Source of the DNA: TPA_inf: Saccharomyces
Lineage: Eukaryota
Direction: 5' to 3'
DNA: 64,000 bases
NCBI GenBank assembly: GCA_000146045.2
Contig: BK006948.2
Span: forward strand, 864,001-928,000
This document shows positions 14,435 through 23,876 of this stretch, piece by piece. The notes below the pieces were generated by a model. That model was not told where the DNA came from. It ran no database searches and worked only from the letters and a program-made list of their open reading frames with translations. Both the position numbers and the translations under genes were made by a program. The first letter of the stretch is position 1, and each line of letters begins with the position of its first letter.

Positions 14435-16675
14435 ATGATTACGCAGAATTCTATACCAGAGGTAAAAGAAGATTTTATTGGTTATGCTTTACATGAGAGA
14501 AGAATTCGGTTACCGCAGTTTCAAGACTTAGGGCCGGCAGACTTGGTCACACTAACAAAGTATTTGCCCACTTCAAGTAACACAAATGCCATAAACAGTA
14601 CGAGTAGAAATGGTGCGGCCATTATTCAGTCCCCTGCAGCCGTTGTAGCCGATGACTCTGCCGCTTCCATGGCAACCAATGGCGATGCTAGTGACACCGC
14701 CGTTACCACAAATTATACAAATGCATCTATATACAGTAGCAGCAGAAATGCCAATGATGGAGCCCCGATGGTCGCTGAGCTCCATCCACTTGATAAACTG
14801 AAGGACGAAGTAGGGACATTTTTTTACTCAATGGGTGTCGATACATCCGGTCCAACTTCAATCGCAATTTTTTTGAAGGAGATTTCAGAGGTCATCAGCG
14901 AGAAACCCCAAGTTTGGTTTGGCAGGAAGAAAACCTTCAATGTTGCTCGAATTTCATTTTCCACTTGGAATGCGTTCAGGAGATGCGACATAAATGTCGT
15001 CGTTCATATTCCAGGATCGATTCAGAACTTTATAGTGGATTGCAACGGTGAAAGTCAAAATATAGAGATGTGTGCGGATTATGACTTAATTTGGGCTGAA
15101 ACGTTCGTAAGTGGCGTAGTACGGTCAATCATGTTAATGAAGGAAAACGCTGAAGAGGGAGAATTACAAAATTTAGTGGAAACCTTGATTTTGAACCCGT
15201 TTACTGCAGGACAAATCGACGATGTACCAGAAATGTTCATTGATCTGTTCCCTATAGTTTACCATAAGGGCCCATTATTGGGAGCTCCGTATTATATTAC
15301 CAATGTGACGAACACTAATAACTATTTGGTAGAAACACTCGTTGAGATAGTTAAGCTGACTCGTAATGTTAGCAGGGCGGAAATAATGTTGAAGAATCTG
15401 GCTACCGACAACCCTGAGGCGATCATAATACTAATCAAGATCTTTTTGGTGTGTGATCAAGAATTAGACGCAATAAAGCTCACATACGATATGCTTTCGC
15501 AGGATAAAATAATAAACAACACTAATAACCGCATGGATTATAAATCTGAATTACTGTGCTTACAAGCGCAATTTTTGATAGACAAAAGGCAGGATTACAG
15601 CTTGGCGCAAAACATAGCGCAAGAGGCAGTCAATTGTTCTCCCAGTGAATTTAGACCTTGGTATCTTTTATCCAAGGTGTATGTAAAGCTAAATGATATT
15701 GAAAATGCCTTACTGATACTGAATTCATGCCCTATGTCTCCATTAAAGGAAAAATACGTACTGAAAAGAGTAGCTCCGTTGCCTTCGAATAATAGTCTTC
15801 ATTTGCCATTGCCAATTGACGTTGTACTGGATGAAGTGACGTCGTTGAATCCACAAGACGTTCAGAATGAACACCGCTCTGCGGATCCAATGCTGGTCAA
15901 TTTAGCTGCGTCGAACTTGAAATCTACTTTCCAATTGGCATACCGATTATTGACAGAAATTGTGCAGATCACCGGCTGGGAAAATCTGTTAAAGTACAGA
16001 TCAAACATTTTCGTTATGGAAGAAGAGTACCAAAAATCATCATCTTCGTTACCAAAGGACGTTAACAAACAAGAAGAACAGCCTCTGAGGGCTAAACGGC
16101 TGTGTGAACGATGGTTAGACAACCTCTTCATGCTTTTATATGAAGACCTGAAGATGTATACATTATGGCAAACCGAACAACTGTACATGGATGCACAGAA
16201 TAACAACCACAATAAGTTGACTTTCGAATGGGAGTTATTTGGCCTTTGTGCACGTCGACTGGGCCATTTCCCTGAGGCCGCCAAGGCCTTCCAGAACGGT
16301 TTATCGCAGAGATTTTCATCAAGGTGCGCGAGGAAACTGCTGGAATATTGTATAAACGAACGCCAACGGGTCAAAAATTTTATAAACTCACCTAATTCGC
16401 ATGACATGGTCCCTGAAATAGTAAGCTCACGCATAAGAGAGCTAGACAATAGCATTATCGACCTTTGCGTGAAGATATGCTGCTGGAACCACCGTTGGTA
16501 TACGGAATTTTCCATAAGTTTACTTGATTGTTTAAGTGTGGTTATTCAAGATATGAGTCTGACCAAAGTTTCGAATGAAATCTCGTCAAGATATCCAGAA
16601 ACTGTTCTCAACTTGGTGCAGGAGAATTTGCTCAATTTCTTCACTACTTGCACCATTGGATGCTACGATGCATAA
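14435..16675 (+). CDS. BUD7: ChAPs-family (Chs5-Arf1 binding, exomer) TPR protein, 746 aa
   Basis: 746-aa ORF. Its position and length match YOR299W. Confidence 0.92.
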   Translation: MITQNSIPEVKEDFIGYALHERRIRLPQFQDLGPADLVTLTKYLPTSSNTNAINSTSRNGAAIIQSPAAVVADDSAASMATNGDASDTAVTTNYTNASIYSSSRNANDGAPMVAELHPLDKLKDEVGTFFYSMGVDTSGPTSIAIFLKEISEVISEKPQVWFGRKKTFNVARISFSTWNAFRRCDINVVVHIPGSIQNFIVDCNGESQNIEMCADYDLIWAETFVSGVVRSIMLMKENAEEGELQNLVETLILNPFTAGQIDDVPEMFIDLFPIVYHKGPLLGAPYYITNVTNTNNYLVETLVEIVKLTRNVSRAEIMLKNLATDNPEAIIILIKIFLVCDQELDAIKLTYDMLSQDKIINNTNNRMDYKSELLCLQAQFLIDKRQDYSLAQNIAQEAVNCSPSEFRPWYLLSKVYVKLNDIENALLILNSCPMSPLKEKYVLKRVAPLPSNNSLHLPLPIDVVLDEVTSLNPQDVQNEHRSADPMLVNLAASNLKSTFQLAYRLLTEIVQITGWENLLKYRSNIFVMEEEYQKSSSSLPKDVNKQEEQPLRAKRLCERWLDNLFMLLYEDLKMYTLWQTEQLYMDAQNNNHNKLTFEWELFGLCARRLGHFPEAAKAFQNGLSQRFSSRCARKLLEYCINERQRVKNFINSPNSHDMVPEIVSSRIRELDNSIIDLCVKICCWNHRWYTEFSISLLDCLSVVIQDMSLTKVSNEISSRYPETVLNLVQENLLNFFTTCTIGCYDA

Positions 16676-16964: not shown

Positions 16965-18272
16965 ATGAAGGAAGAGCTCAGCAAAGTGAGCAGTATGCAA
17001 AATTTCGAGATGATCCAGCGTGAACGATTGCCAACATTGTATGAAGTGTTAATACAGAGGACATCGCAGCCAGTTGATCTCTGGACTTTTTATACATTTC
17101 TTTCACAATTCCCATATGCCATCAACTATCTGGACTTTTGGGTTGACCTTATGACACATACACGACTTTGCAAAAACTACATAGAGTTGGTAAGAAAATC
17201 ATTAATCAACTTTCCACAAGAACAACAGCAGAATGGAAGTACATCTACGGCTACATTTGACTTGCTGAACGCACTGATAGAAGAAGGGCACCTAGACCCG
17301 GAAGCACCTGATAAACTCTTAGAAAATAGCGGCCCAGACGTGCCCTTTTCACCAAAATTAAACGAATTGCTGGGTGATTGGAAGCACCAATCGGGTATCG
17401 GTCAAGAAGCCCTGAGAAACGAAGACGTAGCGCTGATCGTCGACGAGATAATGAAAAGGCGCTCCCAACAAGACGGAAAACCGCAGATAACTACAAAACA
17501 ACTGCTGCACAGCGCAGTTGGTCTCTGCAACACCTATTTAGTATCGCCCGAACAAAGCGAACGGTACCTGAGCAACATCCCCATGGAAACGCGGAACCGC
17601 ATAATAGAAAGCGTACAAATCGAGCGAAAGTACGACATTGAGATTTTTGACGACCTAAAAAACCTAACTTACCAATTCCTAGAAATGGATTGTTTCCCAA
17701 AATTTCTAAGCCGCGTCGCACTACACAACATCCACGATGAAATATCTGATTGGAGATTCCACTCAGTGGGCGTCACCAACGAAAAAAGCAATCGCTCTCG
17801 AGGCCAGACGCACATTTCTCGCTCGCCATTCTCCAATCACACGTCAATCAGTCGTATTGGCTTTGGTTTGCTCTGGCTAGGCATCGGCTTTTGGATCGGA
17901 TATGTTCTAATCTTCCTGGCGTATAGTCGCGCAATCCGTGTCGTTACGGTCGTGCCATTTACACTGGGATGCTACTGCATTGTGTGTGGCATGTATCAAG
18001 TGGACATTGTGTATTCCTGGTTTGGCGTCACACAGAGACTTCTCCACAGACACAAAAACGCTGGCAATGACGAAGGAGATGCTTCTAGTGATACCGATCA
18101 CGTGCCAATGATACTTGCGGTGTTCGGCGGTAGGCGCCGTCTTACCCGCATAGAGCACCCATTTACTCGGCAGCTTCTACGTAAGCGTGGACTGTGGTGT
18201 CTGCTTCTCGTAGTGGGTGCCACTGCCGCATTCACAGTTATTTTCAGCTGTGTTCCCGGCCGTCGTGTATGA
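16965..18272 (+). CDS. RAX1: Bipolar budding landmark-maintenance membrane protein (RGS-like N-terminus, C-terminal TM helices), 435 aa
   Basis: 435-aa ORF with hydrophobic C-terminal helices (GFGLLWLGIGFWIGYVLIFLAY). Position matches YOR301W. Confidence 0.9.
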   Translation: MKEELSKVSSMQNFEMIQRERLPTLYEVLIQRTSQPVDLWTFYTFLSQFPYAINYLDFWVDLMTHTRLCKNYIELVRKSLINFPQEQQQNGSTSTATFDLLNALIEEGHLDPEAPDKLLENSGPDVPFSPKLNELLGDWKHQSGIGQEALRNEDVALIVDEIMKRRSQQDGKPQITTKQLLHSAVGLCNTYLVSPEQSERYLSNIPMETRNRIIESVQIERKYDIEIFDDLKNLTYQFLEMDCFPKFLSRVALHNIHDEISDWRFHSVGVTNEKSNRSRGQTHISRSPFSNHTSISRIGFGLLWLGIGFWIGYVLIFLAYSRAIRVVTVVPFTLGCYCIVCGMYQVDIVYSWFGVTQRLLHRHKNAGNDEGDASSDTDHVPMILAVFGGRRRLTRIEHPFTRQLLRKRGLWCLLLVVGATAAFTVIFSCVPGRRV

Positions 18273-18414: not shown

Positions 18415-18421
18415 TGACTCA
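18415..18421 (+). promoter_or_regulatory. Gcn4 response element TGACTCA upstream of CPA1
   Basis: gtttGACTCAtc lies about 350 bp upstream of the uORF. A second near-site TGACTCg is at 18604-18610. CPA1 is under general amino-acid control. Confidence 0.45.
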
Positions 18422-18623
18422 TCATCGCATCGCATTACCTCATGATGAGTAAATAGTTGCGATTTCACTTATCACCTCTCGCGGAAAAAAAAGGCGATGA
18501 CATGATATATAAGGCTCTCTCGTAAGACACTTAACTATCCAACGTTCATTAGATTATTCGGTCAATTTCTTTTTTCATGCCCCTCCTTTTTCTTTTCTTT
18601 TCTTGACTCGTCGTTTCTTTTTC

Positions 18624-18643
18624 TTTTTTTTTTTTTTTTTTTT
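18624..18643 (+). repeat. 20-nt poly(dT) tract (within a 50-nt T/C-rich block) upstream of the CPA1 uORF
   Basis: Counted 20 consecutive T at 18624-18643. The flanking sequence is ttctttttcttttct. Confidence 0.9.
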
Positions 18644-18764
18644 CTTCAGAACTATAACACATAGATACACTCGAACATCTAATTGTTTAAATACTGCAAA
18701 GAATACAAGGTAATCGACTCTTCTACATACCCTTTTTGCAGATTTGAAATAAAAAAAACATTAT

Positions 18765-18842
18765 ATGTTTAGCTTATCGAACTCTCAATACACCTGCCAA
18801 GACTACATATCTGACCACATCTGGAAAACTAGCTCCCACTAA
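18765..18842 (+). CDS. YOR302W: CPA1 leader uORF encoding the 25-aa arginine attenuator peptide [25 protein letters not shown]
   Basis: ATGTTTAGCTTATCGAACTCTCAATACACCTGCCAAGACTACATATCTGACCACATCTGGAAAACTAGCTCCCACTAA was read directly from the sequence. It lies 57 nt upstream of the CPA1 ATG. Confidence 0.92.
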
Positions 18843-18898
18843 TTTCATTGCTTAATAATCAGAAATTCTATCACAAACCACTCCTAAAAATATTTCAA

Positions 18899-20134
18899 AT
18901 GTCCTCCGCTGCAACAAAAGCTACTTTCTGTATCCAAAATGGTCCTTCCTTTGAAGGTATATCTTTTGGTGCAAACAAATCTGTTGCTGGTGAAACAGTT
19001 TTCACTACTTCTCTGGTTGGTTACCCAGAGTCCATGACTGATCCTTCCTACCGTGGTCAGATATTAGTCTTCACGCAACCCTTGATTGGTAACTACGGTG
19101 TCCCATCCGGCGAAGCCCGCGATGAATACAATTTACTGAAGTATTTTGAATCTCCGCATATACATGTGGTCGGCATCGTTGTCGCTGAATATGCTTATCA
19201 ATATTCGCATTGGACCGCTGTTGAATCTCTGGCACAATGGTGTCAGAGAGAAGGTGTTGCTGCTATTACTGGCGTAGACACCCGTGAACTAGTGCAATAC
19301 TTGAGGGAACAAGGTTCTTCTTTGGGCCGTATTACGTTGGCTGATCATGACCCTGTCCCCTACGTGAATCCCATGAAAACTAACTTGGTTGCTCAAGTCA
19401 CCACAAAAAAGCCTTTCCACGTCTCTGCCTTACCTGGGAAGGCTAAGGCAAATGTGGCTCTTATTGACTGTGGTGTTAAAGAAAACATTATCAGATGCCT
19501 AGTCAAAAGAGGTGCCAATGTAACTGTTTTCCCCTATGATTACAGAATTCAAGATGTTGCTTCTGAATTCGACGGTATTTTCTTATCCAATGGACCAGGC
19601 AACCCAGAACTATGCCAAGCTACAATTTCCAACGTCAGGGAATTACTAAATAACCCTGTTTATGACTGTATCCCTATTTTTGGGATTTGTCTAGGCCATC
19701 AACTCTTGGCTCTGGCCTCCGGTGCCTCTACTCACAAATTGAAATATGGTAATAGGGCTCACAACATCCCTGCCATGGATTTGACTACCGGCCAGTGCCA
19801 CATTACATCTCAAAATCATGGCTATGCAGTTGATCCTGAGACCCTACCAAAGGACCAATGGAAACCTTATTTTGTTAATTTAAACGACAAATCAAACGAA
19901 GGCATGATACACCTTCAAAGACCCATATTTTCTACCCAATTTCACCCAGAGGCAAAAGGTGGTCCCTTAGACACAGCTATTCTTTTTGACAAATTCTTCG
20001 ATAATATAGAAAAATACCAATTACAATCTCAGGCAAAAAGTTCAATCTCACTAAAAGTAACATACAGTACCGATAAATCGAGATTGCAGAGTATAAATGT
20101 TACTAAGTTGGCCAAGGAAAGAGTGTTGTTCTAA
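18899..20134 (+). CDS. CPA1: Carbamoyl-phosphate synthetase (arginine-specific) small subunit, class-I glutamine amidotransferase, 411 aa
   Basis: The first ATG at 18899 gives [20 protein letters not shown]... of 411 aa. The GATase catalytic Cys motif GICLGHQ and the His in FHPE are present. Confidence 0.95.
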
Positions 20135-20513
20135 AAACAAAATTTATACATTACGTAACACATACGTACATCTAAATACGATTCAATTCAGTTCATGGTA
20201 TTTTGCGCTACTCGTCGTTGCTTAGTATCTACTCGCAGTTGTCATAATTAACGGGCGCTTCTTGTAATTAAATGAACAAAAAAACGTAACGTACGTACAA
20301 TGGCTCTAATTTCATCCTGCCATCCTAAAAAAAAAATCAAATAAAGCAGACTCAAAAATTTTCAGCTTCAGTTAAATTTTGATAAGTATATTTGCATAAC
20401 TCAAGGAGTTTGTGCAAACGGTTTTCTTTCTTTGTGGTTTGTTTTATTTACTTTCCAATAATACCCGTCTTGTTGGTTTAAGTCGTAACAAAAGGAAAAC
20501 TTACAATCAGATC

Positions 20514-23500
20514 ATGACGACCCAGCAAGAGGAGCAACGAAGTGATACCAAGAATAGCAAAAGCGAGTCACCTTCAGAAGTTTTAGTCGATACTCTCGAC
20601 TCAAAGTCAAATGGCAGTAGTGATGATGATAATATCGGACAAAGTGAAGAGCTATCAGATAAAGAAATATATACAGTAGAAGATAGACCACCAGAATATT
20701 GGGCTCAAAGAAAGAAAAAATTCGTACTTGATGTAGATCCAAAATACGCCAAGCAAAAGGACAAGTCCGATACGTACAAAAGATTCAAATATTTATTAGG
20801 CGTCACAGACCTTTTCCGTCATTTTATTGGAATTAAGGCAAAACATGATAAAAATATTCAAAAACTCTTAAAACAGTTAGATTCTGATGCAAACAAACTT
20901 TCCAAATCACACAGCACCGTCAGTTCGTCATCACGTCACCATAGAAAAACAGAAAAGGAGGAAGATGCTGAATTAATGGCTGATGAGGAAGAAGAGATTG
21001 TAGATACATATCAGGAAGACATATTCGTCTCAGAATCTCCCTCCTTCGTCAAGTCAGGAAAATTAAGAGACTATCAAGTTCAAGGCTTAAACTGGTTAAT
21101 ATCGTTGCACGAAAACAAACTATCTGGTATCTTGGCCGATGAAATGGGGCTGGGTAAAACCTTACAAACAATTTCATTCCTAGGTTATTTGAGATACGTC
21201 AAACAAATCGAGGGACCCTTTCTAATAATAGTACCGAAGTCAACACTAGATAATTGGAGACGAGAGTTTCTTAAATGGACTCCAAACGTCAATGTCCTTG
21301 TGTTACATGGTGATAAAGACACAAGAGCTGATATAGTACGGAATATAATATTAGAAGCTAGATTTGATGTATTGATTACATCTTATGAAATGGTCATTAG
21401 AGAAAAGAATGCTTTGAAAAGATTAGCTTGGCAATATATTGTTATTGATGAGGCTCACAGGATCAAAAATGAACAAAGCGCGTTATCTCAAATAATTAGA
21501 TTATTTTACTCTAAGAATAGATTATTGATTACGGGCACGCCTCTACAAAACAATCTACACGAATTATGGGCCCTGCTAAATTTCTTATTACCTGATATAT
21601 TTGGAGATTCTGAACTTTTTGATGAATGGTTCGAACAAAACAATTCGGAACAAGATCAAGAAATTGTAATCCAACAGCTACACTCAGTACTAAACCCCTT
21701 TTTACTGAGAAGAGTCAAAGCGGATGTCGAAAAATCTTTGCTACCTAAAATCGAAACGAATGTTTACGTGGGGATGACAGACATGCAAATACAATGGTAT
21801 AAATCATTATTAGAGAAGGATATAGACGCTGTTAACGGTGCTGTTGGAAAAAGAGAAGGCAAAACGAGGTTACTGAATATTGTTATGCAATTAAGGAAAT
21901 GCTGTAATCATCCATATCTTTTTGAAGGCGCAGAACCTGGACCTCCATACACTACCGATGAACATTTGATTTTCAATTCCGGGAAAATGATTATATTAGA
22001 TAAGTTACTGAAAAGACTGAAGGAAAAGGGATCTAGAGTATTGATTTTCAGTCAAATGTCGAGACTATTGGATATCTTAGAAGATTATTGCTATTTTAGA
22101 GATTTTGAATATTGCAGAATCGACGGTTCTACTAGCCATGAAGAACGTATAGAAGCTATCGATGAGTATAATAAACCTAATTCTGAAAAGTTCGTTTTTT
22201 TGCTAACAACACGTGCCGGTGGTTTAGGTATTAACCTTGTCACAGCCGACACTGTTATTCTTTTTGATTCTGATTGGAACCCTCAAGCTGATCTACAAGC
22301 AATGGATAGAGCGCATAGAATTGGTCAAAAGAAACAAGTTCATGTTTATAGATTTGTCACAGAAAATGCTATTGAAGAGAAAGTCATTGAGCGTGCCGCA
22401 CAAAAGCTGAGACTAGACCAGTTGGTTATCCAACAGGGCACGGGCAAGAAAACTGCATCTCTTGGTAACTCAAAGGATGATCTGTTGGATATGATTCAAT
22501 TTGGCGCTAAAAATATGTTTGAAAAGAAAGCAAGTAAAGTCACTGTTGATGCTGATATCGATGATATTTTGAAAAAGGGGGAACAGAAGACACAAGAACT
22601 AAATGCCAAATACCAAAGTTTAGGACTTGACGACTTACAAAAGTTCAATGGGATCGAGAACCAATCTGCTTACGAATGGAATGGTAAAAGCTTTCAAAAA
22701 AAATCCAACGACAAAGTAGTTGAATGGATTAATCCTTCCCGAAGAGAAAGAAGAAGAGAGCAAACCACTTATTCAGTTGACGATTATTATAAGGAAATTA
22801 TTGGTGGTGGCTCTAAATCAGCAAGCAAGCAAACTCCGCAGCCAAAAGCACCCCGCGCTCCAAAGGTTATACACGGTCAAGATTTCCAGTTCTTCCCCAA
22901 GGAGTTGGATGCCTTACAAGAAAAGGAACAGCTTTACTTCAAGAAAAAGGTCAACTATAAGGTTACTTCTTATGATATTACGGGAGATATACGTAATGAA
23001 GGAAGCGATGCTGAAGAAGAAGAAGGAGAATACAAAAATGCCGCTAATACAGAAGGTCATAAAGGCCATGAGGAACTTAAAAGAAGGATTGAGGAGGAGC
23101 AAGAGAAGATTAATTCAGCACCGGATTTTACCCAAGAAGATGAATTACGAAAGCAAGAATTGATATCAAAAGCCTTTACTAACTGGAATAAGAGGGACTT
23201 TATGGCGTTTATCAACGCCTGCGCCAAATACGGTAGAGATGATATGGAAAACATTAAGAAATCTATTGATTCCAAAACACCAGAAGAGGTTGAAGTGTAT
23301 GCAAAAATATTCTGGGAAAGACTAAAGGAAATCAATGGGTGGGAGAAGTATTTACATAATGTAGAACTTGGTGAAAAAAAAAATGAAAAACTGAAATTCC
23401 AGGAAACTCTATTGAGGCAGAAAATCGAACAGTGTAAACATCCATTACATGAGCTGATAATACAGTATCCACCTAATAATGCTAGAAGAACTTACAATAC

Positions 23501-23876
23501 CTTAGAAGATAAATTTTTATTATTAGCTGTTAACAAGTACGGACTTCGTGCTGACAAGCTCTATGAAAAATTAAAGCAAGAAATCATGATGAGTGATTTG
23601 TTCACTTTTGATTGGTTTATAAAGACAAGAACGGTGCATGAGCTATCAAAAAGAGTCCATACGCTATTAACTTTAATTGTAAGAGAGTATGAGCAACCTG
23701 ACGCAAATAAGAAGAAAAGGAGTAGAACTTCAGCGACTAGAGAGGATACTCCTTTATCCCAAAATGAAAGCACTAGAGCTTCAACGGTTCCAAATCTCCC
23801 GACGACGATGGTGACAAATCAAAAAGATACAAACGATCATGTTGATAAAAGAACCAAAATTGATCAAGAAGCATGA
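20514..23876 (+). CDS. ISW2: ISWI-family SNF2 chromatin-remodelling ATPase (helicase motifs + HAND-SANT-SLIDE), 1120 aa
   Basis: The ATG at 20514 gives [11 protein letters not shown]... of 1120 aa. Walker A (DEMGLGKT) and DEAH-box-like (IDEAHRIKN) motifs are present. SANT/SLIDE regions are in the C-terminal half. Confidence 0.95.

Follow-up and report, generated by a model that had tools for sequence, protein, structure and literature searches.

The CPA1 locus

The window, by which we mean the whole stretch of 64,000 nucleotides that was analysed, contains a plus-strand open reading frame (ORF) of 411 codons whose product has the Pfam domains CPSase_sm_chain (PF00988) and GATase (PF00117) and scores 473 bits against TIGR01368, the glutamine-hydrolysing carbamoyl-phosphate synthase small subunit. 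In the public protein collection the protein is a 100% match to CPA1 of Saccharomyces cerevisiae S288C (NP_014947.3), as the preliminary description had proposed; CPA1 is the small (glutamine amidotransferase) subunit of the arginine-specific carbamoyl-phosphate synthetase (CPSase). Upstream lies RAX1 (ORF 16965-18272), identical to S288C Rax1p, and downstream an ORF with SNF2/HAND/SLIDE architecture, which marks it as an ISWI-type remodeller and whose close database matches are named Isw2p. Since CPA1 and RAX1 are both identical to S288C and an Isw2p-like ORF follows, this part of the window is S. cerevisiae chromosome XV around YOR301W-YOR304W.

The 90%-identity protein cluster that holds CPA1 (411 aa) also includes Isw2 proteins of 1120-1121 aa, and its representative has 1154 aa, the length of the GTG-started neighbouring ORF at 20412-23876. 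This mixture of CPA1 and Isw2 looks like a database clustering artefact, perhaps arising via a chimeric member, rather than biology. Further upstream, a 217-codon ORF on the minus strand (15862-16515) runs antisense inside a 746-codon ORF (14435-16675) and is probably spurious. A tRNA scan found no tRNAs.

Anatomy of the leader

The features of the CPA1 leader and its surroundings, all on the plus strand, are as follows.

18415-18421, +: TGACTCA, candidate promoter element (pattern scan)
18506-18512, +: TATATAA, candidate promoter element (pattern scan)
18604-18609, +: TGACTC, candidate promoter element (pattern scan)
18624-18643, +: T-run of 20 nt, candidate promoter element (pattern scan)
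18650-18764, +: leader 5′ of the upstream ORF (uORF), with a putative 5′ boundary (no ATG between that at 18577 and the uORF; conserved block inside)
18759-18768, +: context of the uORF start codon (uAUG), CATTAT/ATGT, weak, with T at -3 (sequence; shared pyrimidine at -3, see below)
18765-18842, +: arginine attenuator peptide (AAP) uORF, YOR302W, ATG to TAA, 25 residues (translation, PF08252, AAP_YEAST match, 2XL1 alignment)
18798-18824, +: peptide core Q12-D13-Y14-I15-S16-D17-H18-I19-W20 (alignment to 2XL1 and 17 other fungal AAPs)
18840-18842, +: uORF stop codon TAA, the arginine-dependent stall site reported in the literature (sequence)
18843-18898, +: intercistronic spacer, 56 nt (sequence)
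18899-20134, +: CPA1 main ORF, 411 aa (PF00988, PF00117, TIGR01368, exact match to NP_014947.3)

The uORF (ATGTTTAGC...CACTAA) opens with the codons ATG TTT AGC, closes with CAC TAA, and consists of 25 codons and a TAA stop in an intact reading frame; its translation is exactly the peptide given in the preliminary description. A comparable reading frame was not found on the reverse strand of 18765-18842. The next plus-strand ATG is at 18899, the start of the CPA1 ORF, 134 nt downstream of the uAUG, and the two ORFs lie in different frames and do not overlap. The distance from uORF to CPA1 had been put at 57 nt, which is correct as the coordinate difference 18899-18842, but the spacer itself has 56 nt; the disagreement is one of counting convention. 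Over the 321 nt that precede the start of CPA1 the uORF supplies the only ATG, the nearest one further upstream being at 18577.

The TGACTCA and TGACTC motifs at 18415 and 18604 are presumably Gcn4-type sites, candidates judged on sequence only; the motif at 18604 is kept in S. paradoxus and unaligned in S. uvarum. The absence after 18577 of any ATG besides that of the uORF, and the position of the T-run, are consistent with transcription starting shortly after the T-run at 18624-18643. We placed the 5′ end of the leader just past the T-run because Werner et al. are said to have put the CPA1 leader, in 1987, at about 250 nt.

Identity of the encoded peptide

The length of the uORF carries little weight by itself, as shuffling the 249-nt leader 5000 times produced a closed ATG ORF of at least 25 codons in 1125 cases (22%). 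The case therefore rests on the encoded sequence and not on the existence of an ORF. A chance ORF in an AT-rich leader, devoid of any function of its own, has a negligible probability when that sequence is considered. The peptide matches the Pfam profile PF08252 (Leader_CPA1, ‘arg-2/CPA1 leader peptide’) with 58.8 bits and E=3.1e-16, against a gathering score of 18.5, and the match spans profile positions 1-23 of 23. An identical peptide is encoded in three Saccharomyces species that differ by synonymous changes only, and in more than 20 contigs from diverse fungi the peptide core stands in a short uORF before a CPSase gene, as set out below. Published mutational evidence also speaks against a chance ORF (PMC7075259, PMC7969011). 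The family match and the orthologues exclude it.

UniProt lists exactly this peptide as AAP_YEAST (‘Arginine attenuator peptide’), and in S288C it is YOR302W; it is present on 120 contigs. The element is the S. cerevisiae CPA1 arginine attenuator uORF itself, reference-identical and already known; the exact match, together with a PF08252 score above the cutoff, bears out the name that it had been given from the letters of the DNA. A text search of the literature for the peptide string gave no match, probably because the string is printed only in figures.

The sole relative of solved structure is chain A of PDB 2XL1, an ‘arginine attenuator peptide’ of 24 residues which we take to be the Neurospora crassa sequence, the PDB table giving the molecule name only. 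Its side of the alignment with the yeast peptide reads SVFTSQDYLSDHLWRA, and yeast D13 and W20 fall opposite residues 12 and 19 of 2XL1_A. The two residues named beforehand as critical, the ‘D12 equivalent’ and W20, are thus both present, the first as D13 in yeast numbering. The alignment with fungal AAPs that had been suggested as a check showed matching core columns in 2XL1 and 17 other fungal AAPs, although in the latter the match is partly imposed by the search pattern. All the defining features of the fungal AAP (PF08252) that can be tested in silico are present in the yeast uORF, and nothing that contradicts the AAP reading was found in the present analyses.

Comparison within Saccharomyces

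In S. paradoxus (L001) and S. uvarum (L002) the order RAX1 - uORF - CPA1 - ISW2 is the same as in S. cerevisiae and the 25-residue peptide is identical. Compared with S. cerevisiae, the uORF differs at one position in S. paradoxus and at three in S. uvarum, all of them synonymous third positions, with no non-synonymous difference and no indel. The intercistronic spacer, which measures 56 nt in S. cerevisiae and 74 and 70 nt in the other two species, is poorly conserved, with many indels and substitutions.

The gene calls of the S. uvarum assembly OX365935.1 include the uORF, as a 25-aa gene with PF08252, whereas those of the S. paradoxus assembly CP020256.1 lack it despite the identical peptide, a concrete case of inconsistent annotation of the AAP uORF. 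The earlier statement that generic gene finders miss this element is accordingly only partly right: the S. paradoxus gene calls omit it and an automated uORF scorer overlooked it (PMC1964767), but it is annotated in S288C as YOR302W and called in S. uvarum.

Attenuator uORFs in other fungi

A scan of metagenomes for the peptide core, QDY[I/L]SDH[I/L]W in back-translated form, yielded 28 matches. At 22 of these the core lies within an ATG ORF of 20-25 codons, and a gene for the CPSase small subunit follows on that strand; the downstream CPA1 homologues are 59-69% identical to yeast CPA1, save in two S. cerevisiae contigs, where identity is 100%. The layout of the yeast locus is thus shared by 22 metagenome loci and by the two other Saccharomyces genomes. 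Two further matches (L028 and L030) have an AAP uORF interrupted by a GT..AG intron, and L030 also has a CPSase gene downstream, making it the twenty-third such locus. In the remaining four matches both the ATG ORF and the CPSase gene are missing, and these were taken as chance background. The introns, L028 595-690 (96 nt) and L030 161-251 (91 nt), with the motif on the plus strand, occupy the same site inside the Asp-12 codon, and their removal leaves canonical 24-residue AAPs, MRTAPSVFTSQDYISDHLWKANVN and MRVLPTLFTSQDYISDHLWKTSGY respectively.

Because the search pattern required the nine core residues, their invariance in the alignment of 18 AAPs is partly circular. Several features outside the pattern are nevertheless shared. 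The ORF has 24 codons in 18 loci, 25 in five and 20 in one; at 23 of the 24 loci the stop follows the Trp at a distance of exactly 5 codons; and position -3 of the uAUG is always occupied by a pyrimidine, C at 16 loci and T at 8. The positions F/Y9, T10, S/C11 and K/R21, which flank the core, are conserved. The spacer between uORF and CPSase gene varies from 33 to 106 nt, whilst the linkage to a CPSase gene on the same strand is constant. In many contigs of 1.7-2 kb the uORF stands 50-330 nt from one end and the CPSase ORF comes next, an mRNA-like layout that indirectly favours a uORF inside the mRNA leader, although these contigs may not be transcripts.

Between related fungi, synonymous changes accumulate in the uORF and replacements are few or absent; the pair L010/L020, for example, has 9 synonymous and 0 non-synonymous differences and identical 24-residue peptides. 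Selection therefore acts on the encoded peptide.

Attenuation by arginine

The uORF and CPA1 are co-transcribed as a bicistronic transcript (PMC8573964). The uAUG of CPA1 has a poor Kozak context that allows leaky scanning (PMC7075259, PMC7969011), and at low arginine most scanning complexes bypass it owing to that context (PMC7075259, PMC11550727). When arginine is high, the nascent peptide brings the ribosome to a halt on the uORF stop codon, so that scanning ribosomes are blocked and CPA1 is repressed (PMC7075259, PMC11550727). In cell-free and single-molecule assays on the CPA1 leader, the substitution D13N abolished arginine-induced stalling and regulation, and the effect of the nascent chain was exerted in cis from within the exit tunnel (PMC7969011). 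Changing the uAUG to UAG derepresses a CPA1 reporter, and ribosome footprints are seen over the uORF (PMC7075259). The CPA1 mRNA is a target of nonsense-mediated decay (NMD), the uORF being self-contained in a leader of more than 100 nt (PMC8573964, PMC1657058), and stalling is reported to lead to NMD of the mRNA (Gaba et al., 2005, as cited in PMC11550727 and PMC1657058). For a sequence identical to the one analysed here, the literature thus documents the dependence on arginine, the stall on the stop codon, the loss of the response in D13N and the decay of the mRNA by NMD.

Taking these reports together with the anatomy of the leader, we propose that scanning 43S complexes would reach the uAUG in its weak context, and that at low arginine many would pass it and initiate at the CPA1 AUG, whilst those ribosomes that do translate the uORF would terminate normally. 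At high arginine, the 25-residue nascent peptide would disturb the peptidyl-transferase centre from its place in the exit tunnel by way of the conserved core residues T10, Q12-D13-Y14, S16-D17-H18 and W20, and the ribosome would be held with the UAA stop in the A site. A ribosome held in this way would obstruct the scanning ribosomes behind it and so lower CPA1 translation, and the prolonged termination event would mark the CPA1 mRNA for nonsense-mediated decay. That the uORF is a cis-acting, metabolite-sensing translational attenuator of this kind is, overall, the best explanation of the locus, and we hold it to be close to certain.

Two other ways in which the uORF could act deserve comparison with this scheme. 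One is as a sequence-independent barrier of the GCN4 type, permitting reinitiation, in which the act of translation alone matters and the peptide is irrelevant. Removal of the uAUG raises reporter expression (PMC7075259), as it would for any inhibitory uORF. However, the peptide is under purifying selection across fungi whilst synonymous sites change freely, and the distance from core to stop is fixed. Missense mutations also bear directly on the question: D13N by itself abolishes the arginine response (PMC7969011), and missense mutations within the uORF abolish its function (PMC1964767). GCN4-type control further involves several uORFs of 2-3 codons with unconserved peptides, whereas here there is a single uORF of 25 codons whose peptide is conserved across fungi. 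A barrier of this type is highly improbable, and peptide-level selection and the published missense mutants exclude it.

The other is that the 25-residue product is a free micropeptide acting in trans. It has a gene annotation of its own (YOR302W) and some databases list it as an ‘uncharacterized protein’, but the element is always physically linked, at 33-106 nt, to a CPSase gene on the same strand, and the literature describes an effect of the nascent chain in cis, within the exit tunnel (PMC7969011). Regulation also moves with the leader segment, to judge from the title of Delbecq (1994) as cited in PMC8573964. We consider a trans-acting product very unlikely.

Relation to known systems

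The element in the window and the S. cerevisiae CPA1 uORF/AAP (YOR302W, AAP_YEAST, PF08252) are the same; the peptide, CPA1 and RAX1 are those of S288C and no difference was found. The AAP of the N. crassa arg-2 uORF (24 residues) belongs to the same family, aligns over the core (TSQDYLSDHLWR) and lies upstream of the orthologous CPSase small-subunit gene, and arginine-dependent stalling at the stop codon has been reported for both peptides (PMC7075259, PMC7969011). The yeast AAP is one residue longer at the N-terminus, so that D12 and W19 of N. crassa become D13 and W20, and the N- and C-terminal residues of the two peptides differ.

More distant parallels are found among other leader peptides. 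The human cytomegalovirus gp48 uORF2 and the MAGDIS uORF of mammalian AMD1 (AdoMetDC) likewise give peptide-dependent stalls at or near the uORF stop that block scanning, and the AMD1 stall requires a small molecule, polyamines. Their peptides are unrelated to that of CPA1, the effector is different or absent, and other genes are regulated. The bacterial leader peptide TnaC is short, has critical Trp and Asp residues and, on sensing a free amino acid within the ribosome, hinders termination at the stop codon of its own reading frame. Its likeness to the AAP is by analogy only: TnaC is bacterial, senses tryptophan, works through Rho-dependent transcription antitermination and has no sequence homology to the AAP. 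The class of ribosome arrest peptides is described in PMC7969011. GCN4 uORF1-4 and the CPA1 uORF are alike in being means of amino-acid-related translational control in yeast via the 5′ leader, but GCN4 has four uORFs of 2-3 codons, for which the sequence of the peptide matters little and which respond to ternary-complex levels, whereas CPA1 has a single uORF of 25 codons whose action depends on the peptide (PMC1964767).

The CPA1 AAP is a textbook example of metabolite sensing by a nascent peptide inside the eukaryotic ribosome, and its uORF is a natural one that triggers NMD. The intact copy in the window adds nothing new to biology, but it shows that a regulatory ORF of 78 nt can be recognised from raw sequence. 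The practical point concerns annotation and genome design, since some pipelines skip the uORF and disturbance of the leader is costly: in the synthetic chromosome synXV, a loxPsym site in the CPA1 5′UTR (exact insertion position not given) brought a 5.4-fold drop in the translation efficiency of CPA1 and was partly responsible for sensitivity to hygromycin B, a defect that was repaired when the site was removed (PMC10667554).

Synonymous invariance in Saccharomyces

When the uORF (18765-18839) is set against L001 1349-1423 and L002 1353-1427, only 3 of its 75 sites are variable. In sliding windows of 25 codons along CPA1 in the same three Saccharomyces species the median is 17 variable sites, and none of the 387 windows has fewer than 10. 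Between S. cerevisiae and S. uvarum the uORF has 3 synonymous changes where 11.6 changed codons are expected (P about 0.0002), the expectation being based on per-amino-acid synonymous rates from CPA1. The invariance might be put down to the two-fold-degenerate codons of the core, but this was rejected, as allowing for amino acid composition barely shifted the expectation (11.6 against 11.4 unadjusted). Among other fungi, the metagenome pair L013/L015 shares the pattern, with 2 synonymous changes against 10.8 expected, and is the one pair outside Saccharomyces in which the deficit is significant; six other pairs are individually non-significant, with observed changes below expected in each. The fungal pairs were picked after inspection of the data and the Saccharomyces sample consists of three species, so that we regard the invariance as a minor lead only.

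Such figures raise the matter of an RNA-level element in the uORF, whether a structure, a protein-binding site or a codon-specific kinetic signal, that either replaces the peptide or is added to it. We think this unlikely as a whole, and the two forms fare differently. The low synonymous variation in Saccharomyces and in L013/L015 speaks for such an element, as does the near-invariance of a stretch of 33 nt further upstream in the leader. An RNA element that takes the place of the peptide is unsupported: synonymous sites change at about the rate of the coding sequence in most fungal pairs, folding prediction gave no significant structure for the leader (z = -0.73, with 44 of 200 shuffles folding equally well or better), and an Rfam scan of the whole window gave no family at threshold. 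As an extra layer atop the peptide mechanism it is possible, its basis being the three species and the pairs selected as described above.

The specific proposition that the nucleotide sequence of the Saccharomyces uORF and the 33-nt block is more tightly constrained than the peptide demands is, in our judgement, rather improbable. If true, it would mean that a second layer, RNA-level or codon-specific, is added to the nascent-peptide mechanism; candidates would include the tuning of stalling through elongation kinetics, a binding site, or a feature that sets how sensitive the mRNA is to NMD. A limited literature search (CPA1, uORF, synonymous) returned no mention of synonymous invariance in this uORF within the part of the literature that it covered.

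The block itself, at 18670-18702 (CTCGAACATCTAATTGTTTAAATACTGCAAAGA), has not diverged between S. cerevisiae and S. paradoxus, and S. uvarum departs from them at a single base, in contrast to the poorly conserved intercistronic spacer. It may relate to the transcription start or to some function of the leader.
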